A DNA stretch of 64,000 nt from contig JAUFOQ010000016.1 of assembly GCA_040285855.1 (NCBI GenBank), forward strand, positions 62,001 through 126,000, written 5' to 3'. The notes beneath the pieces were generated by a model. It was not told where the DNA came from. It worked only from the letters and a program-made list of their open reading frames with translations, and did not search any database. Origin of the DNA: Eukaryota sp. GEM-RC1. Taxonomy: Eukaryota. The translations under genes were made by a program, and so were the position numbers. Shown in pieces: positions 4,386-45,224 of the stretch. Position 1 is the first letter of the stretch. Every line of letters begins with the position of its first letter.

Positions 4386-5698
4386 GTAAGAGTACCATAT
4401 ACTGACCCGACCTTCAGGGCAACTATATTCAAATGTGTTTCTCATTCCCAACAATGTTTACTTGTAGTTGTACTGTATTTTAGCTTTAGTATTAAGAACA
4501 ATGGAGACTTAGAGTTGAAGAAATCATATACTGGAGATGTTTCTAAATTAATGTCACCTATTTTCCAGAATTGCTCAAACCTAAATTAATGTCACTGACA
4601 TTAATTGCGAAGTGACATTAATTTGGAAGTGACATTAATTAAGGTCAGCGGTGTAGTTGATTTTGTTGTTAACAAGCCTTTCATCCGGAAGCTTTTGAAA
4701 AAGTCAACCCAGAAGAAATTAAAACGAATTTGTTTGACACGGTTTTACACTCAATTCATCGTCATTGAAAGAGTACACGAATTGTACCAAAATGTGAATA
4801 ACACTCTCACGAATGAAGACTATATCACCTGGCTTGCTAAGCGACAACAATCTAGAATTAGAGAAGTATCTGCTGAGGTCAAGCTAATAGTTGCCGATGA
4901 TGATTTTTGGGTTCAGGTAAAATTATTAATTGACTTCTTACGACCAATCATTGACTTAATGCTTAAAATGGACGGTCTAACGCCAATTATGGGAAAATTG
5001 TGCCGATAGCTCGAATTGGAAGATCTGAGGTTATCGACAGCTCAGTTATCCATCCTAGAACTAGGTGAAATTGATAGCATAAGAAGTCGATTTCAGGTTC
5101 GAAAGAACCAATTAGCACATCCTTGTGTTAAAGCTGCATTCTGTTTGGATCCTGAAAACAGAAACATTGTCAGACTGAGTAGATACCTTGACTGTAGGAG
5201 CGCACTTTTTGGTCTCATTGAACAACGGTTCGGTGTGCGTAAGAAACCAGATGTTTTGCAACAGTGGAATGAGTACTAAGTTGGAACTGGGGAGTTTGAA
5301 CATGAAGCAATTTTTCTTAATGCAAGGAAGCAATCTGCTCATAACTGGTGGTATGCCAATGGAGGGGACCAAGAATTATCTCAATTGGCTGTAAAACTGC
5401 TAAGTAGTGTTGCCTCCAATTCAGAAGCTGAAAGAAACTGGTCTGACTTCAGTGTTGTCTGTACCAAAGAGCGATCCAGACTAACAAGTGAGAAAGCCAG
5501 TGACTTTGTGATGATCAAACACAACCTGAAGAGGGGAAAGATAATGAGTAGAAAGTTCTTTGACTGGATTGATGAAGAAGTTCTTGGTCCTGAGCTTGAC
5601 AATTTAGAGGTCACATATGATGAAGAAGTACAGCCTGTGGTGGAGGAGATATTGGTTCCTGAGTAACCTGTAGAAGAAGTGAAAACTTGAGTGCTCAC

Positions 5699-7110: not shown

Positions 7111-7520
7111 TATAAGAATGATACAAATACAAGGATGTACAATAATGTATATCCAATACGTGTTGGGATATAAATATATTGATGCAATGCTTGGTAATGA
7201 AAAAGCTGTAAGTTTACCTGTTCTATCTGATAGTTTAGAAAGTCCTGTTTGATCATTCCTTTTTGGAAGTGCTTTATTTAAATTGGTAGGAGTTGGTTCA
7301 TTGGCTAAAGTTGTAAAATTCAAAATAGGCAGATGTGGTTCAGATGTTCCAAATAAAATACTGCTTTTTCTTAGTTCTATAACCTATGGATTTGTGCTGT
7401 AATCTCTTACTTTATCTTGCCAAATTTCTGTTGATATACCTTCTTCATCTTCTTTTCTTTTATATCAGTCTCTATCTTCAAAAATTCTACTATGATCTAA
7501 AGCAGCTATTTTCTCGAAAA

Positions 7521-8136
7521 CAGGCTTGTTAAAAACGTTGTCCAAAAATAAAAACGACGTTTTTTATCGTCTTTTACGTTTTTTCGAAATAAATAAAAAC
7601 GTTCAGTTCTACTACCTATCTTCATTTTCTGAATTAGTGTGTATTAATTTATTGTTGCAAATAAACTCTAATAAATTCAGTTCAATTTTTCAACTTTTCA
7701 CTTGTTTCTCGCTTCATTTTCATCAACCAAATCTTTCACAGTTCGATCATTACAGCTATCTTCTTTTGAGATTGGAAGGAGAACACCGTGTAGATGAAGT
7801 ACAGTGCTCATCTAACGGTGATCACGTGGACAGGGCGGGAAGATAACATGGTATGTGCAACAAGAACACTGATCGAGTGTACCTGAAGGTCGTTTCACTC
7901 AGATACAGAACCAAAGAGCATACACTGTACGAGCAATGGTGTCACCAACAAATACTCTTGCCTTGTTTCGGTCAGAAACAACATAGCTGAAATAACACCT
8001 GTCAAATTAAGACAAAAGTGGAGTAGAAAGTTGCGTTTATTGTGTCAATCCAGAGTATATAGAACGATGACAAAAACAAAAAACGCGGTTTTTTTCAAAA
8101 TACGTTGTAAACGTTGTTTATCCACTGACAAGCATG
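7521..8136. mobile_element. Probable hAT MITE (second copy at ~14629-15244)
   Basis: Imperfect TIR CAGGCTTGTTA / CATGCTTGTCA, AAAACG/CGTTT subterminal repeats, TSD only approximate (CGAAAACA/CGATAACA). Confidence 0.55.
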
Positions 8137-8806
8137 CGATAACACCATCCAACACGTGTTTAGGTGACCCCGATCATGGCTCACAAGTTGACACCAAATA
8201 TCACAAAGTAAAAAATTTGTTTGATTTTGTGATGTGATTGATGTGACATGTAATATTTTTTAGATTTTACATTACCATGTGTTGATTACTTTCATAAACA
8301 ATGTTAAATCCAAGAATCGGTTCACCAACTTATGAGATAGAAGTAAATTTAACATTGGAACTGAAGAAGCAATTAATGTCAGTTTGTGTTGTATACAAAT
8401 TAAATGTCTTAACATTCCCCATCTATCTTAGATTCCATGGATGGACATAACTATCTGACATCCGCAAACTTCTTTGAGGAACTACCTTTGGGATGCAATT
8501 GGAGAGTTACGAAATCTGGTAGCCTGATTGGAAAGTCAATAAAGTGAAGCACTTTGATTTTATTATTCAAAGGTTGGATCTGGAATATTGTTGGACCTTA
8601 CTACTAAATACTGCAAAGAACTTCCACAGCTGGAAATTAAGCGTACGAACAAGACGTTTACTTCAGTTGTTACATTTCATTTACAAATTTTGTTCAATCA
8701 TTGTGATGTTGTGATGTTAAATCACAAATATCACAAAAATATTGCTTGTGATGTGATTGTCAATGGTTGTGACTCACAAAATCACATTCACAACTATGCT
8801 CCCAAC

Positions 8807-10180
8807 CAGGCTTCACTAAAGTAGTCCGAAATTCAAAATTAAAGTAAAGTAAAGTAGTTTACTTTACTTTAAGTGCTACTTTACTTTCACTTAAAGTTAC
8901 TTTAAGGCCAGTAAAGTACGCCCTGTCAGGGCTCCTCATAAATAAATATAAATTCTATTTATTTCTATTTATTTCTATTTATATTTATTTTTGAGCCTTT
9001 TTGGCGATTATGCAAATAAAACAAAATAAAACAAAATATAAATAAATATAAATAAAATCTCTTTCGTTTATCCATACACTTGAGGCCCTTTATACTCAAT
9101 CTAAGTGTAAAAACTCTCTTTTACATCATAGTCAAAATGAACGCGTGCCAACTGGCTGTCATAATCCTCAATATAAACGAACATTGTGCTCATTTCAATG
9201 AAACTTTCAATATTTCCTACAACGGATTAGTAGAAGTTGATGAAGCGGTTTTCTCATCCAATCCATCTTTTCTTTAGGAGTGAACGAAAGAAACTTTATA
9301 GCAACTAAAATGCTGTTCGATCTTCATGGGTCTCGATGAAATGACAATATTGGAGCAATCATAAGAAGAAAAAGGTCAGATTATCTATCACATCTATGAC
9401 TCAGATATGATTAGATGAGCCAAAAACTATCCAATGAACTGGTTTCCCTTACCATGACTTGAACTAAGACTTGTTTAATAATATTTTGCTTATATTTGTG
9501 TTTTATTTTGTTTTGATTATATTTATTTCACATTTATTTTTGGCACTTTTTGATGTTCAAATTATTTTAAATTATCTTATGAGAGGGCCTGCGCCCTGAT
9601 CTCAATCGTCTTTTCAATAGTTTTTGTAATAAATATTCGTGTTTAGTTTCCTCTTCGCATATATCCATGACTTCACTTCCTTCCGAAGAATGGAGGTCAG
9701 TCTGTCAAATTGTGGAAGTACTGTCACGAACTTGTGCTGGGTTTTACTGCAAGCTCTGTGGGACAACTCACGCGGTCAACAGATGGGCTATGGAGGGGCA
9801 CTATGTTCCAAATCTTGTACCCAAAAGATCCGTTAAGCTTTGCTCTGCCATCAACAACACGAAAATTTTGGCCAATATATCTGCCTTAACTTCCTACTTA
9901 ATAAGTCATGCCAAATCTAGAAAGAGACATTCCATGTTAATATTAAAAAATATTAAAAGACAAGCACTCACTTGCTTGGTCTTTAATTTTTGCAGTTTTT
10001 GGTGAGTTTCTACAATAAAGATGGAGTAATGATCGCTTTTTTTGGACATCTGTGATCACCAAACTAACATTGAAGTATTGTTACTTTATCCATTTTGGAC
10101 GTTTCAAGTAAAGTAAAGTAAAGTAAAGTGAGAAAGTAAAGTAAAGTGACTAAAGTACTTTCTCACTTTAGTGAAGCCTG
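8807..10180 (+). mobile_element. Internally deleted hAT element (element E), related to element A
   Basis: TIR CAGGCTTCACTAAAGT, perfect TSD CTCCCAAC (8799-8806, 10181-10188), empty site at 15908-15915, AAAGT repeats. ORF 9667-10005 (MTSLPSEEWRSVCQIVEV...) is homologous to the N-terminus of the element A transposase. Confidence 0.95.
8927..9591. mobile_element. hAT-type MITE (element F) nested in element E
   Basis: Imperfect TIR CAGGGCTCCTCATAA / CAGGCCCTCTCATAA, TSD CGCCCTG(T/A), AAATA repeats. A diverged, inverted relative lies at 44080-45224. Confidence 0.85.
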
Positions 10181-10229
10181 CTCCCAACCAATAATTCCTC
10201 ATTTCTAAAAATCTTCCACTCTCATCTCA

Positions 10230-11725
10230 ATGCAACATTCATCAAAGAATCACTTACTGTGCGAAGTATGTACAGAAATGATGAAGGACCCCTGTACTTT
10301 ACCATGTGGCCACTCTTTCTGTAGATCGTGTATTCTTACTTGGCTGAAGAAAACCCCATCGTGTCCAAACTGTCGTAGAGAAATAGAAACCCCAATCGAT
10401 ATCGAACAATTCTCTGTAAACATCAAACTGCGTGAAGCAATTGAAGCTCATGGATCATCGAGTCCTGATACTCTATGTCAAAGTTGTGAAGAAGCCGCTG
10501 CGGTAAAGTTCTGTGTTCAATGCGATAATCCCTTATGTGATGATTGCTGCTCTCTATTACACAAGGCCAAATTCATGCAGTCCCATTCCATTGTGTCTCT
10601 CAAAGAACGTAGAAAAGCTGAAATTAAGAAATGTTCCCTGCATCCTTCAAAGGAACTTGAGTATTTTTGCTCGCGTTGCTGTGTTGCTGTATGTATGAGT
10701 TGATGTCTCCTCAATGATCATTTCGAACATAAAAAAGCTCTCCGAGATATAGGCTCTGCCGAAAACGAAATGGAAGAAGTCGTGTTATCCATTAACAACC
10801 AATTAGCTCACACTGGGGAAGAGGTTTCTCGTTTGTCACAAGAACTTGCAACAAATATTGCAGATATTCCGCCACTCCTTCAGCAAGCTGTTAAATCGTC
10901 GTTACAAAGCTCTACTATTGATCTAGAAGCTACTCGTTCTCAATTCTTTGCTTGTAAGAAGGTTGTTGTTACATCTGCTTTAGATGGTGATGTGGATGGA
11001 TTGTTGGATCAAAGAATTACTGAATTAATCAATTTTGTATCAACTGCTAAAGAACAATTGACTTCTTCTCTTCATCAGTGTAGAAAGGCACTGTCTACCA
11101 CTTCTTTTGGTAATCCAGACTTGTTCGTAGAAAAGAGAGTGAAGAAATGATCGCCTCAAAGTCACTTGATTCATCCGATCCGAAACAGGAGTTGGAATGT
11201 ATACCTATCGAGTCTATTCCTGTTGTTGACGTTCGTCCAATTGATCTTGATCTCAAGTTTAGTGTTCTTAATAAGAATGATGGACTAGTGTTATCTGATA
11301 GGGCTCAAATGATTGTTAAAAAGAACGGCACTAAGTCCTGGCAAAGTGTTCTAGCGGATACTCCTTTGACTCACGGTCATGTTTATCGCTGGAAAGTTAG
11401 AAGAGATAGTTTCCAGAGTACAAAACGTAGATGTGTTGGAATAATCACTGAGCGGGTATTTGTTTGTAGAACAAGTCTCTTATCACATCCTAACGCTTTT
11501 CTGTTCTGTTCTACGGGAAACTTCAATAATGGAGAATATCTTGGAACTGAATGGGGATTAGGACAGGTCATTGAAGTTACAGCGGATCTAGTTAATTATC
11601 AATTGAGAATAACTGAATCAACAAATCTATTCGATTTTCTTATCAGTATTGACCGAAATGTTGATTGTTATTATCCTGTGTTCTCGTTACATGGATGTCC
11701 TGCGTCACTTGAACTTGTTAGTTAA
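10230..11725 (+). pseudogene. TRIM-like RING/B-box/B-box/coiled-coil/SPRY gene, chimeric and disrupted
   Basis: RING CEVC...PCGHSFCRSC...CPNC plus two B-boxes. TGC>TGA nonsense change at 10701-10703 relative to the paralog. Out-of-frame junction at ~11148 to a different SPRY-like 3' segment. Confidence 0.85.
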
Positions 11726-11856
11726 ATCGGTTTTTCATTGTACATATTGTAGACTTTTTTTAATTTTCTACATTTATAAATATATTGTCAACAAACATTT
11801 TCTTACATTTTCTGAATTAATATGTATTAATTTCATGTTGCAATAAGATACAACAC

Positions 11857-14215: not shown

Positions 14216-16875
14216 AAGAATGATACAAATACAAGGATGTACAATAATGTATATCCAACACGTGTTGGGATATAAATATATTGATGCAATGCTTGGTAAT
14301 GAAAAAGCTGTAAGTTTACCTTTAACTGTTCTATCTGATAGTTTAGAAAGTCCTGTTTGATCATTACTCTTTGGAAGTGCTTTATTTAAATTGGTAGGAG
14401 TTGGTTCATTGGCTAAAGTTGTAAAATTCAAAATAGGCAGATGTGGTTCAGATGTTCCAAATAAAATACTGCTTTTTCTTAGTTCTATAACCTATGGATT
14501 TGTGCTGTAATCTCTTACTTTATCTTGCCAAATTTCTGTTGATATACCTTCTTCATCTTCTTTTCTTTTATATCAGTCTCTATCTTCAAAAATTCTACTA
14601 TGATCTAAAGCAGCTATTTTCTCGAAAACAGGCTTGTTAAAAACGTTGTCCAAAAATAAAAACGACGTTTTTATCGTCTTTTACGTTTTTTCAAAATAAA
14701 TAAAAAACGTTCAGTTCTACTACCTATCTTCATTTTCTGAATTAGTGTGTATTAATTTATTGTTGCAAATAAACTCTAATAAATTCAGTTCAATTTTTCA
14801 ACTTTTCACTTGTTTCTCGCTTCATTTTCATCAACCAAATCTTTCACAGTTCGATCATTACAGCTATCTTCTTTTGAGATTGGAAGGAGAACACCGTGTA
14901 GATGAAGTACAGTGCTCATCTAACGGTGATCACGTGGACAGGGCGGGAAGATAACATGGTATGTGCAACAAGAACACTGATCGAGTGTACCTGAAGGTCG
15001 TTTCACTCAGATACAGAACCAAAGAGCATACACTGTACGAGCAATGGTGTCACCAACAAATACTCTTGCCTTGTTTCGGTCAGAAACAACATAGCTGAAA
15101 TAACACCTGTCAAATTAAGACAAAAGTGGAGTAGAAAGTTGCGTTTATTGTGTCAATCCAGAGTATATAGAACGATGACAAAAACAAAAAACGCGGTTTT
15201 TTTCAAAATACGTTGTAAACGTTGTTTATCCACTGACAAGCATGCGATAACACCATCCAACACGTGTTTAGGTGACCCCGATCATGGCTCACAAGTTGAC
15301 ACCAAATATCACAAAGTAAAAAATTTGTTTGATTTTGTGATGTGATTGATGTGACATGTAATATTTTTTTAGATTTTACATTACCATGTGTTGATTACTT
15401 TCATAAACAATGTTAAATCCAAGAATCGGTTCACCAACTTATGAGATAGAAGTAAATTTAACATTGGAACTGAAGAAGCAATTAATGTCAGTTTGTGTTT
15501 TATACAAATTAAATGTCTTAATATTCCCCATCTATCTTAGACTCCATGGATGGACATAACTATCTGACATCCGCAAACTTCTTTGAGGAACTACCTTTGG
15601 GATACAATTGGAGAGTTACGAAATCTGGTAGCCCGATTGGAAAGTCAATAAAGTGAAGCACTTTGATTTTATTATTCAAAGGTCGGATCTGGAATATTGT
15701 TGGACCTTACTACTAAATACTGCAAAGAACTTCCACAGCTGGAAATTAAGCGTACGAACAAGACGTTTACTTCAGTTGTTACATTTCATTTACAAATTTT
15801 GTTCAATCATTGTGATGTTGTGATGTTAAATCACAAATATCACAAAAATATTGCTTGTGATGTGATTGTCAATGGTTGTGACTCACAAAATCACATTCAC
15901 AACTATGCTCCCAACCAATAATTCCTCATTTCTAAAAATCTTTCACTCTTATCTCAATGCAACATTCATCAAAGAATCACTTACTGTGCGAAGTATGTAC
16001 AGAAATGATGAAGGACCCCTGTACTTTACCATGTGGCCACTCTTTCTGTAGATCGTGTATTCTTACTTGGCTGAAGAAAACCCCATCGTGTCCAAACTGT
16101 CGTAGAGAAATAGAAACCCCAATCGATATCGAACAATTCTCTGTAAACATCAAACTGCGTGAAGCAATTGAAGCTCATGGATCATCAAGTCCTGATACTC
16201 TATGTCAAAGTTGTGAAGAAGCCGCTGCGGTAAAGTTCTGTGTTCAATGCGATAATCCCTTATGTGATGATTGCTGCTCTCTATTACACAAGGCCAAATT
16301 CATGCAGTCCCATTCCATTGTGTCTCTCAAAGAACGTAGAAAAGCTGAAATTAAGAAATGTTCCCTGCATCCTTCAAAGGAACTTGAGTATTTTTGCTCG
16401 CGTTGCTGTGTTACTGTATGTATGAGTTGCTGTCTCCTCAATGATCATTTCGAACATAAAAAAGCTCTCCGAGATATAGGCTCTGCCGAAAACGAAATGG
16501 AAGAAGTCGTGTTATCCATTAACAACCAATTGGCTCACACTGGGGAAGAGGTTTCTCGTTTGTCACAAGAACTTGCAACAAATATTGCAGATATTCCGCC
16601 ACTCCTTCAGCAAGCTGTTAAATCGTCGTTACAAAGCTCTACTATTGATCTAGAAGCTACTCGTTCTCAATTCTTTACTTGTAAGAAGGTTGTTGTTACA
16701 TCTGCTTTAGATGGTGATGTGGATGGATTGTTGGATCAAAGAATTACTGAATTAATCAATTTTGTATCAACTGCTAAAGAACAATTGACTTCTTCTCTTC
16801 ATCAGTGTAAAAAGGCACTGTCTACCACTTCTTTTGGTAATCCAGACTTGTTCGTAGAAAAGAGAGTGAAGAAAT
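14216..16875 (+). repeat. Local segmental duplication, copy 2 (paralogous to 7114-11148)
   Basis: Direct sequence comparison. This copy holds the empty CTCCCAAC target site. Confidence 0.95.
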
Positions 16876-17463
16876 TGCTGACGCTTCCAATGAATCGGTG
16901 TCATTCAAACAGGAACAGATGATTAAGCCTTTGCCTGTCTATAGTGGAGCAGTTGAGGGTATGTTTCCAACAGATCTCGATCTTAAGTTTAGCACTCTCA
17001 ATAAGAGTGATGGTCTAATTTTTCTCAGTATGATCGTGTGGTCACGAGTACAAGTAGTACAAACAAATTTGGCTGGAACAATGTACTTGCTGACACTCCT
17101 TTGACAGTTGGTCATATTTATCGTTGGAAGGTTCGAAGAGATACTTTTGGCAGTGCGAAACGGCGATGTGTAGGAATCATAGGAAAGGGGTTGTTTAACA
17201 GTAGAGCAAGTCTCCTCAACAAGTCAAATTGTTTCCTATTTTGTTCCGCTGGATATTTCAATCAAGAAGATAATCTTGGAACTGAATGGGGACCAGGACA
17301 GGTCATTGAAGTGATTGCGGATCTAGTCAATTTTCACTTAAAGGTAACTGAATCCACTGATAATTCATTCGATTTTCTTATCAGTATTGACCGAAATGTT
17401 GATTGTTATTATCCTGTGTTTTCGTTACATGGGCGTTCTCTGTCACTTGAACTTGTTAGCTAA
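15957..17463 (+). CDS. TRIM-like E3 ligase (RING, two B-boxes, coiled coil, SPRY-like); two -1 frameshifts (~16890, ~17020)
   Basis: Zinc-ligand patterns are intact. C-terminal VLADTPL...YRWKV...CVGI...YYPVFSL is SPRY-like. Each frameshift is repaired by adding one base. Confidence 0.8.
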
Positions 17464-17636
17464 ATGAGTTTTAAATTGTACATATTGAGGAATGATTAAT
17501 AGAATAATTTTTACATGAAGACTGAAAAAGTGTATAAATATCGATTTCTAAAAGATACAGTTGTATGATTTGGAAAGGATTGTAAAATGACCCATCAGTT
17601 TTGATTGGTAATAGAATATACAACAGTCAAATACAT

Positions 17637-25100: not shown

Positions 25101-25447
25101 GATAACCGAGGGAAAAGAAGAAGGAAACGTGTGAGGAGAGTGGCGTCAACGTGGGGCTGCGAAGAAAAGTGAGCAGTGATGGTCTCCACAGTAGACTTGA
25201 GAGCATCAACAAGTTCAGGAGAAGTGACTGAGTGACTTAGAAAAGAATTGATGCAAGACAAAATGGATAGATTTGCAGGACCAGATGCTACTTGAAATAT
25301 TGATGAGCAAGTAGATAGAAACAGAGGATAGTTGGATGATTTGATAGCAGACGATAAAGAAGAAAAGTAAGAGGCATATACATGGTTATCCGGGTCGAAG
25401 CTTAGTGTGGTTTCAACTACTTGAGCATCAGATAGCAATGTTCCCAT
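22171..25447 (-). CDS. Sec7-domain ARF guanine-nucleotide exchange factor; one +1 frameshift (~23172)
   Basis: Sec7 motifs PGEAQMIDR and ASMLLHTDLHN. The first in-frame ATG is at 25447; the TTG-started extension to 25636 runs into the Fanzor element end. Confidence 0.85.
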
Positions 25448-25522
25448 ATGTGTTTCTGATGAAGAATCTGTGTTGCTTTTGAGATTGTAAAAGACTGGCT
25501 CAAGATTTGTTACTGTGGATTT

Positions 25523-25677
25523 TCCAAGAAATGCATACTTTACACTTTCAAAGAAAGCTTCTTCATACACACCCCTTTTGTGCGGAAGCACCACATTACG
25601 GCCTCCATTCAAGGTAACTTGAACTTCATCGGCCAATACATGAAATATTCTTCACTAACGTTCAGGTCTTCTGAACG
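25523..25677 (-). ncRNA. Candidate Fanzor omegaRNA (scaffold ~25677-25543 plus flank-derived guide ~25542-25523)
   Basis: Five stems found by eye, packed between the last codons of the ORF and the inferred element end. The position matches known TnpB/Fanzor omegaRNAs. No expression data. Confidence 0.6.
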
Positions 25678-27553
25678 CTTCAGGTCTAATCCCGAAGAAG
25701 AATTCGCTGATTGCGATCTCTAGTTGGTTTCGAGATGCTGAGATGTCTCGCGACCATTCTTGCAAACAAAGAGGACATGTGAACTTGGCATTGTTCACTC
25801 TCCTCTCGCCATTCACCATGTGATACAATTTTTGGTGGACAACCTTACAGCAGTTCACCTTTTTGAAGTATAAAACTCGTCTCCCATCACCACATTGTGC
25901 GATCTTTCTAGATAAGTCAAGAATCGCTTTCTAGGCGCTTTGACCTTTTGTCTTGATGGTCCATCTCCGCCTTTGCCAAACCAGATGCTAATTGGCCGGC
26001 CATCAGCTATAGTATTGATTTTCTGGTGTAATAAATCGAATCTTTTTGTCGTCTTATATAGAAATCGAAATTATTTCGTCGTAAAGATCGTCTGTTTCCT
26101 TCAATAAACCGTCTTTGTAGTATAGTTTTGCTCATCTGGGCATCCACAACGTGAGAAGCTAATTCGATGAGATACAGTTTAAAGTTCTCAACGATACAAG
26201 TATTCGCTGTTGTGTGAGTGAGAGCAGGGACATGGTTAATTTTTTCGGTTTTGGGGACAAACAAATCCCAGAGGCTTCAACTGGTCCATTAAGTGAACCC
26301 ACCGACCAACCACACAGATAGCTGTGGTTGGGGTCAATAGCCCAAAATAAAACACTTTCATCCAGAAGTGGTAATACTTCAGACACCTCAGATTTCTTCT
26401 TCTTCTTGGGAGGAGGACGGACAACCTTACTTTGAAGGTTCTTCTTTCGTTTTCTTGTCTTTGAAGGCCGTTGAGCAGGTTTCTCCACCAGCTCCAACTC
26501 GGCCTTTGTTCGCCTCTTTTAGTCTTTTTAGGCTTCATTGAGAAAGTGAATCTCAATGAGACTCCATCGGAGGAAATTGTGTAACTCTCAAATTTCTTCT
26601 TTCTAAAAACATCATGTGGATTTTTTTAATAAAACCTTTCGAGTAATATAATTTTGGAAATGTTTTTGAGTAGACTGGCTGAAGGGAAGAAAGCCAGGTG
26701 AATAAGATGCCATGGGCGTAAGAGCTTGCCGACGCATTCTGGTGGGCTCAACCCTCTCCAAGTGGAGGAGAAGATTAAATGCAACTTCAAAGATGAAGTT
26801 GACATTGGAAGGAGTTAAGTCAGTCATTGGAGTGGTCAAAAGGGCATCCACTCGTTCTGGGTCCATAACTTGATTGTTGAAGATGTCAACAATCTGGTGG
26901 TGCCAAGTGGTCCACCAAGGAAGAAGAGATTGCGGTGGCTCAGAGCCACGTAGAACAAGAGAAGCGTACTGCTTTGGAGAGGGACAAAGACAGTAGGTAG
27001 CTGTGGTTCGAAAGAAGTTTAGCTTCCAACTAACCAAGCCATCCGTCATCAGCTGCTGAAAGGCAGCTGCAAGCTGTTGTGCTCTTGCACTAAACAGGTC
27101 CGAGTATGCCCAGTTGATGGGACACCTCCGTTCCTTGCATGGGGGTTTGTCCCGGCCAATAGGAGGGAACGGCCAGCCTGGACGGTCTGTAGAATTTAAA
27201 AGAGCATTGAACACCTCAGTGTGCTCACTAAAAGGCTCCCGTACTGGTATCGTCTGGGAGGACGGATCCAGACAAACAAAGTCAAAACACTGGTACCAGT
27301 ACTGCTGTTCAGTCAGCCAGTACGCCAAGTGTTTGTGCTGGAGCACGAACAGTCGAGCAAGGAGGGTGCTCTGGACAGCAACTGTTCTGACGTGGCGGAA
27401 CTGCCGCTCCATGGCTTTTTGAGCTGGCACTCCGAAGAAACGGGAAATAGATGACGCGACAGTGGTTTTTTTGTCGACAGTCATCAAAGTTAAATAATTG
27501 AAGAATTTGATGTAATTTATGTAACCTCTATCACAATCGTTTGTTCTATAGTG
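25543..27553 (-). mobile_element. Candidate Fanzor-only (non-autonomous) transposon, ~2.0 kb
   Basis: Imperfect inverted termini TA|CACTATAGAACAAA and TA|CACTTTCAAAGAAA with TA on both flanks tightly enclose the Fanzor ORF and the structured 3' tail. Boundaries are inferred from a single copy. Confidence 0.55.
25655..27484 (-). CDS. Fanzor1-type (TnpB-derived) RNA-guided endonuclease, ~610 aa after repairing five single-base frameshifts
   Basis: Motifs in order: ISSDGVSLRF (TDGVS-like), FWAIDP (RuvC-I D, 26333-26335), IWFGKG, VVMGDEFYTSK (RuvC-II E, 25876-25878), NCC...CPLC zinc site, WSRDISASRN (RuvC-III D, 25745-25747), C-terminal RPEAFRRP. The repaired frame has no in-frame stop. Confidence 0.88.
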
Positions 27554-28514
27554 TATTTGTAAATTACCATCTGTGGACACCAGTTGCTGAGTAGTTGAGA
27601 CGGTTTTTAATTGCTAAGGTATGTCTTCCATGATCTCTCTTGATGAAGTTAAGAGAACCAAAAGTACTTACAAAATTTATGAAATATTGTGGATTATATT
27701 GTATTTCAACTACAGGTTACTTTCAGAAAAATATTTTACATCAATGATTAGAATCTTTTGGTAAATAAGTACAGTAGACTAGAGGTGGTTGTTCTCAGAA
27801 TTGTTTGTATGATCCCAATGGTCTCGCTAGATGAATGAATAAGATTTACGATGGGTCATCTTAACCATCTTAATTCAAACTTTGACTTAGTGGCACCATC
27901 TTTGTATATGGTAGCTACAGTATACAATCCCTGCTAGTGGAATTTGGGACTGACGGACTTTCTCCCCTTGACTTTTTTCATTCTGTGGGATGATTCCATC
28001 GTGGCGTTTCTCTCCTACTTTACATTCATGAATCTCTTTCTCAACATCCTGAAATTCCTGACATCACTAACAGTGATAAAACGGACGACGACTTTAGTAG
28101 AGACGTTTTGCTGGAGGAAGAAGGCACCAAGAACATTATATGAGCTTTCAGGGGTTAGAATATCCTTCGTCATGAAGGCAACCACAAGCTCTTCCCCTTC
28201 TGTGATGGATCAATAGCTCTCTACTTAACGTTCTCATCTGATTTCTGTTTTGAAATTCTTCCTTTGGGATGATGCTCCTTCAGTCATCACAGATGTACTT
28301 TCTGTCTTGTACACTTCATTCCTAGCTCTTATTTGTTCACTAAAACATCATGAATGATGTCAGATTTCTCATTGTGTACTTGAAACCCTTTCTCTCCTGC
28401 TTGATAAACAATGATAACCCACTAGTCTCATCAGTAGATGCACGTCAGTCATAGCTTTTATTTCACAAAACAATAAAGATCCGTCATCATCTGTTTACAT
28501 TGTATGGAACAAAC

Positions 28515-29127
28515 CAGTGTTACGCCATAACCAAAAATTAATTTGCCATACGCGTATGGGCGTATGGTAGAATGGCAGAATGGCTGACAATGGCCATCAA
28601 GCCATATCTATCCATATGCAGAATCTTACCAACACCACTTAACTTCGATCTCATACACTTCAATTTGTCATCAAATTAGTAAAACAAGTATGCTCTGTAG
28701 AATCGTGTGAAAGAGTTTGAGTACGTACTCATTCATTCACAACAAACGATGAAACAGACTTTTTGAAGTTTTTTTACTTTATAGAACAAAAATAGTGAGA
28801 TAAAAACAAAATCAAACTTATAAAGGAGCGCACAAAAAAATGGTTTCTATACAAATCAATGAAACTCAGATCAAAGACATCAAGCAATGGAAGCAGAGAT
28901 GGTATTCTGATGGTGCTAATTTTTCCTATGAGATGGATGATGTGGAGGTTTGGTTTCCAATAAAGTATATGTATCTACATTATGATAAAACCCGTCACAA
29001 AGTCTCTGTGTCGAAGAAGTTCAAATAAAGATACATGTAGTCAAAATGTGTATGGCAAAAACAGAAAATGCCATACGCGTATGGGCGTATGGACGTATGG
29101 GAGTCCATACGTGTATGGCAAACAATG
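28515..29127. mobile_element. Probable MITE with CCATA/TATGG subterminal repeats
   Basis: Ends CAGTGTTACGCCATA / TATGGCAAACAATG. GCCATACGCGTATGGGCGTATGG occurs near both ends. A relative lies at 53131-54060. No TSD found. Confidence 0.6.
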
Positions 29128-32100
29128 GCATCTCAACAAAGTGTGACACTTTAACAGAGGTTTCACTAACTCTCCAGGAATTGCTGTCCAGGATTTGCAG
29201 ACAACGAAGTGCCTATGTTGATGGCAGAATCAGTGATGCGGATATGGAACAGTTTATGGACACTTTCAAGGAAGAAAGGATAGCAGCTGAAGAATTATCC
29301 AGAATCAGACTTCAAATTTTTAGAAGTATTTCGCTGAGTTTTAATGGCACATGTAAGCTATGACTGAGAAATGTATCAACAATTCTGAAATTCTTGAGTA
29401 GTGAAAATTCCTTCCTCTACTGAATAGAATAACTGAAAATAATCAAGACGATCAGTACTCGTTGAGATGAATAAATGACCAATGAAAAGGTCTCTTTGAA
29501 TTTGAGGACAAACGTCAAAAGTTCGCAGATTTCAAAAGAAACACCACAGTCTGTGAGGTTTAAAAGATAGTTACCAAACCAGTAGTATCTCCCTCTACTC
29601 GTCAATAATATTTGATTATAATAATATTTGAAAAGACAATTGGGAGGTTTATGCATTCAAAACGAAATCCCCAGTAGACCAATTTCTTCAAAACCAATTT
29701 CTTCTTCGTCCTCCCTCAGAACCTGTTCCTTCCCCTGGAACTGAAGAAGCTCATTGTTCTTTTAATAAATTACCAAAATTAAGATTGCCAAAAGCATCCA
29801 GTGGTACTTGTGTTGAGAATCCATTGGATAAATTTGATTGGTATGAAGACATCAATTTTAAACGAGAGCTATTCAATCAATCAAAGAAAATGCTTTTAAT
29901 CTTAGAAAAAGAAAACAATACATTGAAACAGCAACATGTAGAATTGAAAAATGAATTGGATGGATTGAAGAAATGAACTATAATAAAATGATTATTTATT
30001 AATGAAAATGAACGTGACACTTTATAAAGAAGATTTTGTTAATATACCGTACTTTGGAATAACTATCATTTATCAAATTAGAAAAAACAGAGAAAGGTAG
30101 AGCAGGTAAAGCCCGCAAACCTAAAAAGCCCTTACCGCGAGCTCGAGTACCGGAGAAGTTAGTAGACGTGCTGTATTTATCGGAAGGTCTGTACCATTTC
30201 AATATTGGAGTCAGTTTGTCATTGTCTTTTATTTCTTTTTCTTATGTCTAAACGACATGCTTCAACAGAGGACGAACCTCAGAGCAAGATAACCAATGAT
30301 TTTGACGATGATTTTCTTCCTTTTGAGTATGAAGTCTTATCTGGCGATGCTGCTGCTTCTTTTCTCTCAGATCTTCCCGATCAACCTACCGAGACTCCTT
30401 CTACCTCAGAACCCTCCAACAGTGTCCGACTCGTAGTCCGACTCGCAGTCTCTAATGGAACCACTGATGGAGCCGAAAGATGCCGAACTGAACGCCAGAA
30501 GAGGTCATGGCGAATAAAAATCTGTTGAATCCTGTTTCTCGCTTTCTTTCGCAAAACAATGAAAAGAAGAATCAGAGATTCACGAAAAGTTCAGACGAAG
30601 ATAAGAACTTCACCGGATCAGATACGCATTTATTGAGATGAACAGCAGAGTATGTTCTACGAAAAGGATTGAGGCCGTCAGGTTCTAGATGAATGTTCCG
30701 TGTATAAAGATATAACAGCAAAACCATAGGAGATGTTAGATCGGTCTGAAGTCCCGATGTTAGAATCGTAATTTCATTTCATTTACACTTAAGGTTCATA
30801 GCAGTATCATACAGTAAGTAAGAATATACTCCCAAAAAGTCCATTAAATCCACTTTTTGGGGAGACTCTGTTTTCCACATGCTAAGTATGTCATTAAATA
30901 CCATAGTTGAGAATCTCAAATTTAATAAATACTAGAAATGACCATTAGAGTTCAGAATCGATGCTTGAACAATCAAATAAAACACACTAGTTTTCATGTT
31001 AACATGAGATGGTTTTAAAACGCTGCTACGGTCAAATTTGTATAACAGGGCTCGCCAAAGGGGTAATGACAAATATATATATTTGTAGTAGCATACAGAT
31101 CTGTATTTGAAATCCTCTTTTTGTCTGCAAAATCCAACAATCTGTAACATTCAGATTATCTGTACGCTTTCATCGGATAAATGTTTGTGTTTACAGTTTG
31201 ATTCTCTTTTAAAAACAGATCTTCTTGAAAATGAGACTACTTACTAAGTCATGTGCTGACTGAATAGGTGTCTCACTATTTCGGACGCCATAAAAATTGC
31301 CTGGCATATTCATTGGTATTAAAATTATGTTTTTGAACTGAATTAAGGAAAACGATAACTTAACCCGTCCCCTGAATTAATTCATAAATACATGGCCAAT
31401 AAACAACTTTAGAATCGTTGTAGTTGTTCCACTTGGATTTGGATCGAGTGTAACACACTACAAGGCTTCTAATTAAGCACCATAGCCAATCGCGCTGGAA
31501 ACAACCCTCTGATTCAATAACCCGCTTGTTCCATCATACAAATAATACAAATAATTGTAATTCATCACTTCCAAGTAATGAAAGATTAATGATTCATTCT
31601 TTACCAATTACGAAGGAAGTGGAAAAGAGCAATACAAAATCACTTTTGTACTGCAATCCCATTTAGTGTGTTTTCATCACCAGTTACTGACAGACACTTT
31701 ATAATAGCCTGATTATGGATTTCATGCATAAGTTGAACCCTTATTTAGTAATTTTAATTAATTAAAATTCTCGTCGAGTCGACTTACATGGTCCTTTTAT
31801 GCATTGCAGTCAAATTGTCACTAATGTCACAACATTAGATCCACGTGCTCAAACTTATGTCAACAGCTTAACTTCAGATGGTTTTAGTTAATCCTAGAAA
31901 CAGCCGAAAATCGTAAAATGTATTTGTATTCCAAAGATGTTGCTAAACTCAATCAAAATTTGGATTTCCAAATTTGCATTTGTTCCATTTGCTATTTCAC
32001 TTTTCGGCAGTTTCCGTGAAATGGCTTCTCAGTTTTTAACTGATTTTGGATCTATCTGTAGGTCTCAGATATAATTTATCAATTTGGAATATCCGTTTGA

Positions 32101-35314: not shown

Positions 35315-38300
35315 TTAAGAAGGTGAATAACTACCAGGAGAATAACTTAACGTTGGAGAATAAGCACCAGGAGTATATGAAGTACCAGGTGAATAATTTG
35401 GACTAGATGGTGAATAGGACGCATAACTGGGAGACGTAGGGTTTGCTCCATAGAGAGGACTACTAGGACTATAACCGCCAGCGGTATAACCAGAAAACCC
35501 AACTCCAGATGGCGATCCATAAGCAGGACTTGATGGACTATAACCAACTGAATATGAAGGAGAAGTTGGTAATGCTTGGTAAGTTGGTGATGAAGGACTA
35601 TAACCCATACTAGGATTATACCCACCACTATAACCAGCAAAGTATTGTCCAGGTGATGCAGACATAGGTGAAGAAGGAGAGAACCCAATTGTTGGTGGAA
35701 CAAAAGGAGACTGTGCTGGAACAAAAGGACTTTGAGGAACCCAATGAGGTGAAGGTTCTGATAAACTATATCCTGCACTTCTGATATGAGGTGAAGCAAC
35801 AGGAAGGAATGGCGAAGGAGCAATACCAGGGGAAGCTGGGTAATCAGTAGCAGCGATTGGTGATAGAGCAGGAGACCAAGCAACATTAGCATCAGCCATG
35901 AAACCACTGTTAAAGGTATTCTCTGTAAAAGCTCCTTCAACCATGGGAGTACTAGCTGAGGCAACTTCTTCCATAATCATTGTACTTTCACTGGATTTAC
36001 CATCAAAAACAGCAGAAACTGCTTCTTCTAACAAAGTTTCATTGATAAAACAGTCAATAACTCCAGATCCTAGTCTGGAATCCTGACCAAGCATAATAGA
36101 AGGAGTAGGTCCTTGAATAGGATCAGTTTCAGCATACATTGCTGCTTCAAACAACATATCCACAGTTTCTTCAAAGGAGCATCTGGTAAGAGCAGGCAAC
36201 TCAGTTCTATTGATACCTTGTCTAGAAACAGCCATAAGGTATCCTCTAGCAGTCATAACGTCAACAAGCATAGCTAAATGCCTGTAATTAATATAAGATC
36301 CATCAAATGAAATAACATGTCTAAGTTCATTTAAAAGAGACTTTCTTGCAGCTTCAATACCGAGCACGTCATTGATTTCATGAACGTGATTAGAAGCAGT
36401 TCTGACAGAATCAACTCCAGGTACAGACAACACAGAAAGCAAAGCAATACCTTCAGTATCCAAGATCCACTCTTTGGACTGTATGAAGGCTCCAGTTGTT
36501 TGATCAACTTTAGGAGTTTTAACTTCACGGAGATATACTTTGGTGACACCTTCATAACCACGAAGTTTAACATTATTCAAAATTTCAGATTCGATTTCCT
36601 TTAGAGTTCGAAGGGAATCTTCGGTAGTGATAACCAAACTTTCCTTATCTTCTTCTCTTGGAACAATTCTAATACGAATAACTTGGTTTTCTTCAAATTC
36701 ATTAGAAAACACAACATGAATATCACCAGGAAATTCATTAGAAATAGCAGCAGCCACATCGGCCACATTAAGTTTCTTGTCAATCATCAATTCACGATCT
36801 AACACAATTCTAAGAATCCAAGGATCAAAGAGTTCAGGACGTAAGTCACCATCTTCAGGCAATTCCCAATAGGTTTGGACCATTTCCTTATCTTCTTCAA
36901 TCAAAGTTGATTGATTGGTTTCCCTTACATTCAAGTGGATCATACCAAATCTCAGTTACAGCAGCTACATGTTTAACACAAGTAAATTCAATTTTACTCT
37001 TAATTCCATTAGCCTCATCGTCATCTTGAGATATGGCTTCGTCAAGATACACAGACATACTAGGAGTTTTGATATTCTTGGCAACATTGATCAGCTCCTG
37101 AAGTCTTGGCACACCTAATGTTACATTCTTTGAAGAAACACCAGCGTAATGGAAAGTATTCAAAGTCATTTGAGTTGCAGGTTCACCAATAGACTGTGCT
37201 GCAATGATACCAACCATCTCACCAGGAGTAATTAAGGCTCCATGGAACTTAGTCTCAACTTCACCTAAGAGCCACTCGAAGGCTTCTCTTGACAATCTGA
37301 ATTCATGAGTTATTGGTTTTGAAGCAAGCATTGCTTTGAGATGGATAACAAACAAAGACAAAGCATTGCGCTCTTCTTGTGAAGAAGTAGGAGAATGAGG
37401 AGCGATTACCCTCAAGCGATCAACAAGTTCTTGTACTTGACGGACAACAAATACAGGGGAAAGATCAGTAGGAAGTCTTGAATCAATGTTAAAAATAATA
37501 GTAGCATTGGTAATAATTCTGTCAACATGAACAGCAAGAGGCCATCTATCTTCACCAGATTTAAAAATACGTTCACGCAGATCAGTTCGATCATTTTCTA
37601 AAATATTAAATTCCTTTTCAAGTTCAGCTTCGCCTTCGACTGACCGACACTCTAAAATGATGTCCGGTTCCAGAATGTTCTTTCCATAATCGTGGTGATC
37701 AACATGATGGTAATACTTGTCAATGAAAGCATCATCTGTCAATTTGAGTGATGGAACTTTCTGTTTCTCAAGGAAAGCAGCATCCAAACCATCTTCACCA
37801 TAGAGAAACTGGATAATCATTCCAGTAGAATTTCTAACAGTACCATCATAATGCACCATAACATCTTCCATAGCCTTAATTAACCTTCGCTGAATGTATC
37901 CAGAAGTACTTGTCTTTACAGCGGTATCAATCAGACCTTCCCTTCCAGCCATTGCATGGAAAAAGAACTCTTGGGGAGTCAAACCTTCCATATATGACTT
38001 TTCAACAAAACCTCTTGAAGCAGGGCCAAGATCATCGTAGTCAAAATGAGGAAGAGTTCTGTGGTAGAAACCAAAGTTAATACGTTGTCCTTCAAGATTC
38101 TGTTGACCAACACAAGCCATGATTTGAGAAATATTAATAAAAGAACCCTTGGATCCAGCATCAGCCATGAGTTTCAAAGAATTACTAGCTTTTAATGAGT
38201 TTTGAGCAGTTTTTCCAGAGTCATCTCTAGCTTTGTTTAGAGATCCAGATACTTCACTTTCAAAAGCATCAGAAGCAGTTTGACCAGGTCTTGTTTTAAT

Positions 38301-40478
38301 GTTGTTGAGTAAAAGATCTTCCTGAAGGGATTCCACCTTGAGTTTAGCATCATCAATTGTTCTATTGATGGTACTCATAGTGGAAGAATCAGCAATAACA
38401 TCACTGATACCAATGGAGAAACCTCTTATTTGCATGAATTGATGTAAAACACGCTGAATTTGAGATAAAAATTGACGACTAGCAGCATATCCATGATCTT
38501 TGACTAGAATATGAATCAAAGACCCATCACTTCTACCTACCGTGTTCTTATCAACCATTCCCATCATAAGTTCTCCATTATGAATGACAACTCTAGTATC
38601 AGTGACAGATGCAAACTCTCGCTCTTCAGTCTGTGGAGCAGACGTGGAATGTTTAGAGAGAGAAATATTAGCATCATTAGGAATAGCTAAAGAAAATACT
38701 TGTTTACCAGTGTAAAGTCTCTTTGGCTTCAGTATTGCAGGATCAGGTAAATTGTAAGTTCCTTCGTAATTATCCAGCCACATTGCACACTGCATTGCTT
38801 CATGAACAGTTAGGAATACGTCTCTTTGAGTCAACAACCGGCAGGCCAGAAGAGCATCCTGTACCAAACCAATAACAGGTCTATTTGCTTGAGGAGAAAT
38901 GACTTGAGAAGGAACCATCATCAACTGTTGGACTTCAGCCTTAGCTTCAAGTGATTGAGGGACATGAAGATTCATTTCATCTCCATCAAAATCAGCATTG
39001 TAAGGAGTGGTAACCGAGAGATTGAGACGGAAAGTAGAATGAGGAAGAACACGTGCTTTGTGACCCATGATTGACATTTTATGCAATGTGGGTTGTCTGT
39101 TGAACATCACAGTATCTCCATCATTCAAATGACGATGAACGATATATCCATAGTTGAGATAGAAATCAGCAGTAGATGGAACAAATCTTAAATCGATTCG
39201 GTTACCATCTCTATCAACATAGTTAGCACCTGGATGGATATCAGGTCCATTAGAAACAAGTTTTCGAAGCTTTTCAATGTTGAAAGGAGTGACTACCTCG
39301 GGAAAAGTCAAATGCTTGGCAATAGTTTCAGGAATACCAACTTCATCGATACCAATAATAGGATCTCCAGTGATAACAGTTCTAGAACTAAAGTCTACAC
39401 GCTTTCCCATCAAATGTTGACGAACACGTCCTTCCTTACCCTTAAGTCGTTGAGAGATGGACTTTAGAGCCTTTTTACTACGATGAGTGGCAACGATGAA
39501 GTCTCTATTGGTATTATCCATAAGAGTACCAACGTGGTACTGTAGCAACTCAACTGTACCGCTGGTAACATGAGCAGAAGCACCAGTTCTACGATAATCC
39601 TTCAGAGCAATGTTGGCCTTTACTATTTCTACAATCTTGTAAGTGATATCATCCTCACTTTTTAGAGAGGAGTCAACGTTGACTGGAGGGCGAGCAGCAG
39701 GGGGAGGAACTGGGAAGACGGTGAGAATCATCCATTCAGGACGAACGAATTTGGGATTGAAGCCCATGAGTTCGGCATCAGCATCAGAAATTTTGGCAAG
39801 AATTTCATGTACACGCGCGGCAGTAAGTTCTTCAGACTTGGAGACGCTTCCGGACGTTTTCCACTCCGCAACCAAGCACTTCTTCCCTTGCCCCCATAGA
39901 GAGACGGTCGAGTTTGATTTGGGGAATTTCGGCACCGCAGCCAGTATCTGTTGTGTCGGGGTTTTCAGAGAGAGCGTCTTTGGAGGTGAGACCGGCGTTG
40001 CAAGTGGTGCATTTAGAGCATATAGAAGAGAGTTGGGCGAGACGTTTCTTCGGTCGTAGGAAGCGTTTGATGGAAGTAACGCGAGGGTCGTCGGGGGATA
40101 TACGCAGACGTGAGCATGTGAAGCAGACACATCTAAGAACTTTAACAACAGTAGAGATGAAGCCCATATGAAAGACTGGGGCAGCGAGGTCAATGAAGCC
40201 AAAATGACCAGGGCAAGAGAAAGAGGTGCCTTGGCAGTATCTGCAGAATTGTTTCATGTCAACAGGTCCCATGTCAGGATCATGAGGGCCTCCGCGAACT
40301 GGAACATTGCGGTCGTCATACAAGATTTCCTTATCAACTTCACAAACAGCCATTTTCCGCTGAAATCAACTAGAAGTCAGCGTAAACATACTATTACATC
40401 CGGAGAAAGAATTCCAAACTGGATCTGTTTGATGGTTTTGTATTGTCCAACATCTTCAAGAGGAGAATATTGGGCCAT
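35315..40478 (-). CDS. RPB1: RNA polymerase II largest subunit; one intron and two +1 frameshifts (~39893, ~36922)
   Basis: QFGILSP, CPGHFG, YNADFDGDEMN, EPATQMTLNTFH and a YSP-rich CTD. Confidence 0.98.
40360..40391 (-). other. 32-nt spliceosomal intron in RPB1
   Basis: GTATGTTTACGCTGACTTCTAGTTGATTTCAG has a GTATGT donor, a CTGAC branch-like motif and a CAG acceptor. Removal joins ILSPDVI-RKMAV in frame. Confidence 0.9.
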
Positions 40479-40950
40479 TAAAAGAGCATTAAGTTGAGAA
40501 GAAAGAGGGTAAAGGGGGTTGAGGAATTCTTTGCCAAAAAGATTGAGAACAAGATTCTGCTTGTGCCAAGGCTTCTGCTTCTCCTAGAACATGTCGTACT
40601 AGACTGTAGTTACAACAGAACACCTCCTCGTCCATCTTAACACTCAATCAGCATCACTCCTGAATACAACAGTCATATTTACTTTTATGGCTGAAAAGTA
40701 CTAGTATGAGTCATCTTCTTCCATGACACATTGTCCTTCTTTTCTTATCATACATCTGCTTGACATCACATCTGCAGTAAGTCCATTATCCAAATGTTGA
40801 ACATATCAGTTTATATGCATTCTCGGCATCTTTAGAAGGATAATTGGAGTATGTTGTTCTACCCATCTGATATGTAATACAATTACAAAAACAGATGTTC
40901 AACAATACTAAACCATGACTATAAAAACAAACTAATTAAAAAAACTAAAA

Positions 40951-44079: not shown

Positions 44080-45224
44080 TAGGCCCTCTCATAAGATAAT
44101 TTAAGATAATTTGAATATCGAAACATTACCAAAAATAAATTTGAGATACATATAATTGAAACAAAATACAAGTCAAATAGAAAACAAATATTTTTCTGCA
44201 GATCATAGTTCAAGTCATGGTAGGTGTTGTAGAAGTTGTAGGTGTGTAGACTAGACTTTGTTTAAAGGACTTTATAAATCTTCTTCCCTTGCCTTTAGGC
44301 AACAATAGAGGGAATCCCAATCCATTGAACAGTTTTTGGCTCGTCTCAACGTATCTGTCCTGTTTCTTCTTGTGGAGTGGTCCATTGTTGTCATTTTATC
44401 GAGACCCATGAAGACTCATCAGCGTTTTAATTGCTAAAAAGGGTTCTTCGTTCACTCTTACAGAATAGCTGGATTGGAAGAGAAAACAGCTTTACCAACA
44501 TCTACTAATCCGTTTCAGAAAATTTTGACAGTTTCTTTGAAATGAGTACAATGTACAGTTATGTTGATGATGGTGACCAAGACGTTTTGACACGCTTCAT
44601 TTGAGTATGATTTGAAAGAGAGTTTTGCACTTAGTTGAGTACATCACCCCACAAGTGAATGGATACATGAAAGAGATTTTGTTTATATATATATAAATTA
44701 TTTTGTTTTATTTTGTTTTATTTTGATTTACAGTGTATTTGCATGATCGTAAAAAAGTATCAAAAACAAATATTAAGATATCAAGATATAAAGTAAAATA
44801 TGAAATTGAAGCCCCTCCACGTAATAGTGGCCCCCACGCAATAGTGGCCGATTTTTGGATGGGGCTTATACGGAGAGGCCTCACCACGTAATAGTAGCCC
44901 CTGGTTATAAATAATTTATAAGTATCGATCTTCGAGGATTTGGCCATATTGTGTGAGTTAGAATTGGGTGAGTCACATGTGGAAGTTGTTGATGAGTAAC
45001 TGTTTTTATTGTTTTTGACAGTGAATCCACTACATGCGACACAACTGAGACTTCAGAACATGATTTGGTAAGGGGCTTATAGAGAGAAGCCCCACCACGT
45101 AATAGTAGCCCCCACGTAATAGTAGCCGATTTTAAGATGGGGCTTATACGGACAGGCCCCGGGGCTTCAATTTCATATTTTACTTTAAAAGACAGAAATT
45201 AGTATTTATTTGTGAGGAGCCCTG
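44080..45224. mobile_element. hAT-type MITE of the element F family, inverted, with a nested insertion
   Basis: Ends TAGGCCCTCTCATAAGATAA and TTTGTGAGGAGCCCTG, TSD TGGT(A/C)AAC, interior similar to the reverse complement of 8927-9591. Confidence 0.85.
44791..45185. mobile_element. TA-flanked MITE nested in 44080-45224
   Basis: Perfect 25-bp TIR AAGTAAAATATGAAATTGAAGCCCC with TA flanks and internal CCACGTAATAGT(A/G)GCC repeats. Confidence 0.8.

Follow-up and report, generated by a model that had tools for sequence, protein, structure and literature searches.

A Fanzor1 gene interrupted by five one-base breaks in a Skoliomonas contig, and the divergent multi-copy family to which it belongs

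Few Fanzor1 enzymes have been characterised, and three with solved structures turned up in the searches reported here. SpuFz1 is the Fanzor1 of Spizellomyces punctatus (PDB 8gkh, 9ceu-9cez; Saito 2023, PMC10432273), and its element is SPu-1 of Bao & Jurka 2013 (PMC3627910). The others are GtFz1 from Guillardia theta (PDB 9cer) and PpFz1 from Parasitella parasitica (PDB 9cf0/9cf1) (Cell 2024, PMC11423790). In the metamonads, Fanzors have already been tabulated for Aduncisulcus paluster (FZ1, GKT27103.1; Saito 2023 supplement, PMC10432273) and Carpediemonas membranifera (KAG9392881.1; Yoon 2023 supplement, PMC10711439), and hence the idea that the gene described here is the first from this group was rejected. 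That gene lies in a stretch of 64,000 nucleotides from contig JAUFOQ010000016.1 of Eukaryota sp. GEM-RC1, referred to here as the window. GEM-RC1, TZLM1-RC and TZLM3-RCL belong to Skoliomonas, which are metamonads that live without oxygen in alkaline hypersaline lakes (PMC11603281; 10.1101/2023.05.03.539051).

Judged from its sequence, the gene at 27484-25655 on the minus strand is confirmed as a Fanzor1. The reading that we prefer, with a probability of roughly 0.55, is that it is a young copy belonging to a multi-copy and likely non-autonomous transposon, that its product would be an RNA-guided nuclease, and that the breaks in A-runs which interrupt it are somewhat likelier to be errors in the consensus of a repeat than genuine lesions.

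The coding region (25655..27484) runs from an ATG at 27484, a start that agrees with the MTTTTSTVTCSL-type N-termini of its relatives, to a TAG at 25657-25655, and is made up of six stop-free stretches in shifting frames which, when five one-base breaks are read through, give 610 codons, within the 600-700 aa size of Fanzor1. Piece 1 (26627..27484, with 285 codons to 26630) covers the N-terminal WED strand and the REC lobe, and a search with it found two proteins among 2013 candidates, P0001 and P0002, both from TZLM1-RC and 47-48 % identical to it. Break 1, in an A7 run (26621..26627), has one base extra compared with the frame of the relatives and is followed by piece 2 (26521..26620), which includes the WED strands (ISSDGVSLRF) and is 68 % identical to P0012, an intact relative of 637 aa. 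Break 2 in an A4 run (26517..26520), break 3 in an A6 run (26240..26245, position uncertain by ~15 nt), break 4 in an A5 run (26043..26047) and break 5 in a further A5 run (25860..25864) are each short by one base. Piece 6 (25658..25861) contains the zinc finger (V-N-C-C ... C-P-L-C), D581 of RuvC-III and the C-terminal RP, is 68-69 % identical to intact relatives, and matches Pfam Cas12f1-like_TNB with an E value of 0.0066, under the cut-off of that family.

An earlier note on this DNA had proposed that five single-base edits in or near A-runs join short frames into a protein of ~610 aa free of nonsense codons, and this was reproduced independently in two ways. A frameshift-aware alignment to P0012 extends from 27475 to 25658 (308/591 identical, 52 %) with five one-base shifts, one extra and four missing, and zero stops. 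A profile of eight relatives, applied in fixed windows, placed the best-scoring breaks at 26626, 26520, 26248, 26042 and 25863, the third being the least sharp (26242 lies within 0.5 bit of 26248, and 26257-26236 within ~1 bit). Each break is therefore inside, or no more than 3 nt from, an A-run of 7, 4, 6, 5 and 5 bases, respectively. As only 7.7 % of positions are within 2 nt of an A-run of at least four, the chance of finding five of five breaks there is ~3e-6. With X at the breaks, the read-through protein scores 732 bits on the profile of eight relatives. The two key segments that had been noted as missing from the open reading frame track both fall outside the frames of at least 80 aa, and no second Fanzor copy was found inside the 64-kb window.

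The named close relatives are all eukaryotic. In blastp comparisons, full-length identity between the window copy and its Skoliomonas relatives reaches 48-49 %, and these relatives, which include KAL0205730.1, KAL0231362.1 and KAL0227877.1, are multi-copy and annotated only as 'hypothetical protein'. They have DPN, x-x-C-C and RDISAS motifs in common with the window copy, but many of their annotated frames are uninterrupted whereas the window copy is broken five times. A full phmmer scan for the family gave 56 matches at E <=0.001; ten were looked up, and five are from TZLM3-RCL or GEM-RC1 and five are environmental or unnamed records. Residues 300-637 of P0012 found 15 matches among 1795 candidates (14 TZLM1-RC, one GEM-RC1). 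At a threshold of at least 90 % identity, family members from the three Skoliomonas isolates form clusters of 28, 18, 17, 8, 14, 10 and 3 proteins, and clusters of this size point to recent amplification of several subfamilies. In the 28-member TZLM1-RC cluster that includes P0001 and P0002, three of the 15 members listed are uninterrupted (632-637 aa) and 12 of the 15 are shorter than 630 aa.

A quick tree of 35 C-terminal regions, built without a published Fanzor1 or Fanzor2 reference and with long branches that meet, placed the window copy within an 18-row clade (SH-aLRT 96, branch 1.83), as a subfamily of its own with an end branch of 0.49, while the subfamilies interleave between hosts. 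The 94-aa record P0095 is identical to the window copy at 84/95 positions (88 %), and this sister fragment indicates that the window subfamily has at least one further copy somewhere. It has lost two Trp kept in the window copy, one of them conserved in seven of eight relatives, and hence the window subfamily does decay. Two features of the relatives were seen in passing. P0045, P0048, P0049, P0056 and P0024, from one TZLM1-RC subfamily, have an N-terminal extension resembling a knuckle (CxxC-x4-H-x4-C) that is absent from the others. In all five full-length GEM-RC1 models (P0025, P0059, P0060, P0062 and P0063), one WED strand, the same each time, is 9-10 residues short, perhaps due to a mis-predicted intron.

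The surroundings of the gene are eukaryotic, with Rpb1 (including a short GT-AG intron), Sec7, DEAD-box, CLP1 and RING genes, and also hold hAT transposase remnants and small inverted-repeat elements. Rpb1 (35315-40480, minus strand) has two apparent frameshifts of a single base, one within a G5 run near 39890 and the other near 36920, its intron (GTATGT...CAG) near 40390-40360, and degenerate C-terminal heptads. Frame switches at 42252, 62860, 23167, 58076, 41285 and 18494, in the CLP1, LRR, Sec7, PAP2 and other genes, are probably assembly errors that fragment the gene models. The hAT-type remnants (1788-4658, 4605-5666 and 593-1801) include a BED finger, hAT dimerisation and DUF659 domains, and one is flanked by 31-nt inverted repeats with subterminal repeats. 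Non-coding MITE-like elements with inverted or subterminal repeats are at 28517-29140, which is 1 kb upstream of the Fanzor gene, and at 53134-53970, 44789-45187 and 56072-57109. A pair of RING/B-box genes is part of the local duplications (7114-8808 / 14216-15917, 98.9 % identical; 10179-11749 / 15906-17487, 88 %). The long frames at 27750-28320, between the Fanzor start and the nearest MITE-like element, are broken by stops on both strands and gave no Pfam match. The 30 nt just upstream of the Fanzor start (27494-27523) are 83 % complementary to 2640-2669 in a hAT element (blastn E 0.07), which may be chance.

The window copy would encode a working nuclease only if all five breaks are errors; any one real shift would make it a pseudogene. 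We lean slightly towards assembly error at all five, and rate an active enzyme from this copy a little below even. Though the same homopolymer breaks were claimed for essential genes nearby, and Rpb1, itself a host gene, does have two frameshifts of this type, each next to a short run and flanked by homology in both directions, breaks in host genes are sparser and mostly involve extra, not missing, bases. Applied to 26.5 kb of coding DNA from the other genes, a codon model found ten switches of frame, and setting aside three (one in a duplicated RING gene and two bracketing an in-frame stop) and adding the Rpb1 break at ~39890 leaves eight, of which three have homology support. Six of these eight are extra bases, whereas four of the five Fanzor breaks are missing ones, and the density of breaks, five in 1.83 kb of Fanzor against eight in 26.5 kb of host sequence, is about nine times higher. 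The argument that the gene may be intact in vivo thus stood insofar as host frameshifts exist, but the host rate alone predicts 0.55 breaks in 1.83 kb where five were seen (Poisson p 3e-4, or 5e-4 if nine host breaks are counted). Given this mismatch in density and direction, a second cause is needed, either a repeat that was left uncorrected or real slippage. The former would require the repeat to have escaped short-read correction, which may be expected from how polishing treats multi-copy DNA.

If instead at least one of the A-run breaks arose by real replication slippage, the window copy would be a recently dead Fanzor1 and any active copies would be elsewhere in the genome. This is the strongest competing explanation and a substantial one, though we hold it to fall short of even odds. 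The density and direction of the breaks, unlike those of host-gene errors, suit it, as do the 15 runs of at least six bases that cause no break within 22.4 kb of coding sequence in host genes, the decayed sister fragment P0095, and the dominance of truncated copies in the clusters of relatives, with three of the listed members of the 28-protein cluster ending at the A-rich spot of break 2. However, neutral decay would hardly produce five indels while creating neither a nonsense codon nor a longer indel and leaving invariant sites normally conserved. Of single changes, 4.7 % create a stop and the window copy has none, whereas two decayed hAT remnants nearby have two and one in-frame stops. At otherwise invariant positions, 69/76 residues are kept in the window copy, compared with 87-99 % in eight annotated relatives; one of the misses is an end artefact, and the non-conservative changes are P48K, N277I and Y427C (read-through numbering). 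A 1.7-kb duplicate in the window that is 98.9 % identical differs by ten substitutions, three one-base homopolymer indels and one 6-nt indel. Taken together, the five A-run breaks, the lack of stops, the retained invariant sites, the indels in Rpb1 and in the duplicate, and the stops in the hAT remnants favour error over decay. The relatives point neither way: three listed copies stop at the spot of break 2, and their assemblies were made from Nanopore data with Illumina correction (10.1101/2023.05.03.539051).

A bolder version of the preferred reading, in which the window copy is an intact and active member of an undescribed deep Fanzor1 lineage with a rewired x-x-C-C finger, amplification of several subfamilies in haloalkaliphilic anaerobic protists, an omegaRNA of ~160 nt as guide and an element lacking terminal inverted repeats (TIRs), is tentative and on balance unlikely. 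If it were true, the lineage could readily supply programmable nucleases that recognise new TAMs.

The catalytic residues bear on whether the family cleaves DNA at all. The earlier note had called the catalytic triad intact and this was upheld: the split RuvC triad, D at 26335, E at 25878 and D at 25747, occupies invariant or near-invariant columns that align with SpuFz1. The RuvC-I motif D-P-N (26327..26335, minus strand) would supply catalytic D384 and, by analogy to SpuFz1 D383/N385, an Mg-binding N. The Fanzor fingerprint at RuvC-I is described as near-exclusively DPG (Yoon 2023, PMC10711439), and active SpuFz1 has IDPN with N385 binding Mg (PMC10432273). The window copy likewise has IDPN and lacks a strict DPG, and an interpretation of DPN as a defect or a novelty was rejected on the grounds that active SpuFz1 has the same motif. 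Catalytic E537 of RuvC-II (DEFYTS; 25876..25878) is at the shifted position typical of Fanzors and in register with the DE..TS of canonical matches; it has the placement of Ealt, the glutamate of RuvC-II that precedes the zinc finger by six residues (Yoon 2023, PMC10711439). D581 of RuvC-III is at 25747-25745 in piece 6. In the distant matches, the canonical DPG, DE..TS, CxxC, RD..A..N and, for most of them, RP line up with the motifs of the family.

The order of motifs given in the earlier note was found as described, with the exception of CxxC. The motif of Bao & Jurka (PMC3627910) places a C4 zinc finger after the TS with RD within 5-50 residues, and the window copy has the RD and four cysteines, with V-N-C-C in place of CxxC as the first pair. 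Among the 57 family proteins with this region (P0027, which has one frameshifted tail, was set aside), 56 have x-x-C-C, one has V-A-C-H and none has CxxC, compared with CxxC in 22/23 distant matches; the remaining distant match has x-x-C-C, which is thus not unique to the family. The family-wide loss of the first zinc-finger cysteine weighs against taking the whole family as active, and hints that its members could bind RNA and DNA with cleavage lost or changed. We regard this as improbable, as all three triad residues persist in subfamilies that are only 32-50 % identical, the Mg-binding N of SpuFz1 is retained, and four cysteines remain in 56/57 proteins.

The Lys/Arg-rich insert between WED and RuvC-I (26393..26461, minus strand) is real, with 22 K/R in 65 residues, compared with 16-21 in nine relatives and 9-14 in three distant matches, and in the mixed-profile alignments described below, basic residues occur at this position in SpuFz1 and GtFz1 as well. 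Predicted nuclear localisation signals are reported for ~60 % of Fanzors (PMC10530073), and the insert is a candidate for one on composition; in the P0012 model, pLDDT is <50 at residues 367-388, in this region.

The assignment to Fanzor1 made in the earlier note was borne out by profile and fold searches with relatives, which rank solved Fanzor1 well above Fanzor2. A mixed profile of nine family rows and ten distant ones found SpuFz1 (9e-33), GtFz1 (6e-26) and PpFz1 (2e-17), with mimivirus Fanzor2 (4e-9) and TnpB ranking below all three; much of this ranking is driven by the distant rows, as the family-only profile found no Fanzor. Searches of PDB by sequence with single pieces, P0001 or the family-only profile likewise found none. 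The structural evidence comes from models of the relative P0012 (52 % identical), on which the enlarged REC lobe and the fold nearer to Fanzor1 were assessed. With a model built from 22 family rows (mean pLDDT 51), the top seven Foldseek rows were Fanzor1 chains, with Z scores of 14.6-16.0 over 287-307 residues compared with 7.4 for Fanzor2. A second model from the mixed alignment (pLDDT 80) gave E values of 1e-12 to 8e-8 for Fanzor1 and 1.4e-2 for Fanzor2. Residues 26-335 of the predicted P0012 model, its N-terminal WED/REC part, align with Fanzor1 structures. In the ESM Atlas, P0012 scored 0.98 to clusters in which 16-34 % of members belong to the TnpB zinc-finger family, and the N-terminal piece from the window had no usable match. 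Pfam and NCBIfam hardly register the family, with matches that stay under the curated cut-off. It is very improbable that the gene belongs to Fanzor2, comes from a virus or is a TnpB from a contaminating prokaryote, since, although the nearest ESM Atlas clusters are mostly giant-virus proteins and weak NCBIfam TnpB matches exist, it encodes 610 aa, ranks with Fanzor1, sits among eukaryotic genes and transposons, has named close relatives that are all eukaryotic, and had no relative confirmed in viral, metagenome or prokaryotic genome contigs by exact-pattern scans of low sensitivity.

Structured DNA follows the coding region. A folding scan found hairpins from within the last codons to ~25520 and none further, and the cluster at 25521..25680 (minus strand), which overlaps the last codons and the next ~135 nt, has a z of -4.5 with six of 199 other 160-nt windows lower. 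For 25505-25680, z is -4.3 and none of 200 shuffles was equally stable; as the region was picked after the scan, this support is moderate. The cluster at 25680-25521 is a good candidate for the omegaRNA scaffold and the right end of the element. Fanzor1 omegaRNAs of 75-150 nt have been reported (PMC11423790), and in mimivirus Fanzor2 the structured 3' region extends into the coding end (PMC10530073). Rfam gave a single chance match (E 0.83) over 25300-28600. Upstream of the first ATG of the Sec7 frame (25447, minus strand), 68 codons (25651-25447) are open and share sequence with the candidate omegaRNA. The true start may be an out-of-frame ATG at 25566, and the codon model starts the Sec7 gene at 25565. 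Hence, the right end could be anywhere from ~25580 to ~25520. A search for homologues of the Sec7 gene, which bears on whether the element splits this gene, found none among 7984 candidates. A comparison of 25300-25800 with 27480-30500 revealed no terminal inverted repeats (best score 10; 30 shuffles, 9-13), neither element ends nor a target-site duplication were found, and Pfam identified no adjacent transposase in four upstream frames. An association of Fanzor1 with hAT is common (PMC10530073), and the hAT remnants 20 kb from the Fanzor gene are no more than a lead to the mobilising transposase.

By analogy with SpuFz1, the 610-aa protein would bind an omegaRNA processed from the 3' end of the element, where the DNA is structured. 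The final ~15 nt of this RNA would be a guide supplied by the host DNA next to the element, which at this site is the 5' end of the Sec7-domain gene, and the REC and WED domains would read a short TAM. The RuvC centre D384/E537/D581 would then cut an empty site, and repair templated by the occupied copy could keep or spread the element by homing, while mobility would depend on a transposase encoded elsewhere.

A literature search found no paper joining Fanzor with metamonads. 'Fanzor' and 'TnpB' do not appear in the main text of the Skoliomonas genome preprint (10.1101/2023.05.03.539051) as far as it was accessible. The accessible supplements of three Fanzor surveys have no Skoliomonas entry (one scanned PMC10432273 file being unsearchable), and motif searches in two of the survey supplements found no row of the family among the rows shown. 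The family is thus apparently an undescribed, divergent Fanzor1 subfamily with an altered zinc finger, within a system of known kind. Public Skoliomonas proteomes hold dozens of near-identical copies, many of full length, which make the element ends, the omegaRNA and the TAM workable and allow the need for a canonical CxxC to be tested; unless intact, the window copy adds little beyond a pointer to this family.

Among known systems, SpuFz1 is similar in size (638 aa compared with 610), in the order WED-REC-RuvC-zinc finger, in DPN at RuvC-I, the shifted RuvC-II glutamate and the C-terminal RP, in its D-to-E spacing (158 compared with 153), in belonging to an element that is multi-copy (as judged for the window copy from its relatives) and apparently lacks a transposase of its own, and in having structured DNA directly after the stop. 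However, P0012 is only 9-13 % identical to it in structural alignments, and SpuFz1 has CxxC where the family has x-x-C-C, 30-nt TIRs where none were found at the window element, a basic N-terminal tail (MPPKKKQK) that the window protein lacks, and an omegaRNA of 90 nt compared with a candidate of ~160 nt. GtFz1 and PpFz1 are the best or near-best fold matches of the P0012 model (Z 16.0 and 14.6) despite low sequence identity. The 150-nt omegaRNA of GtFz1 is near the size of the hairpin cluster, but its third catalytic residue is N where the window copy has D (PMC11423790), and PpFz1 has a RuvC insertion of ~100 aa that is not found in the window protein. The Aduncisulcus and Carpediemonas Fanzors come from the Fornicata, the sister group of the hosts of this family, but, compared by their table entries, they have DPG and, where visible, CxxC.
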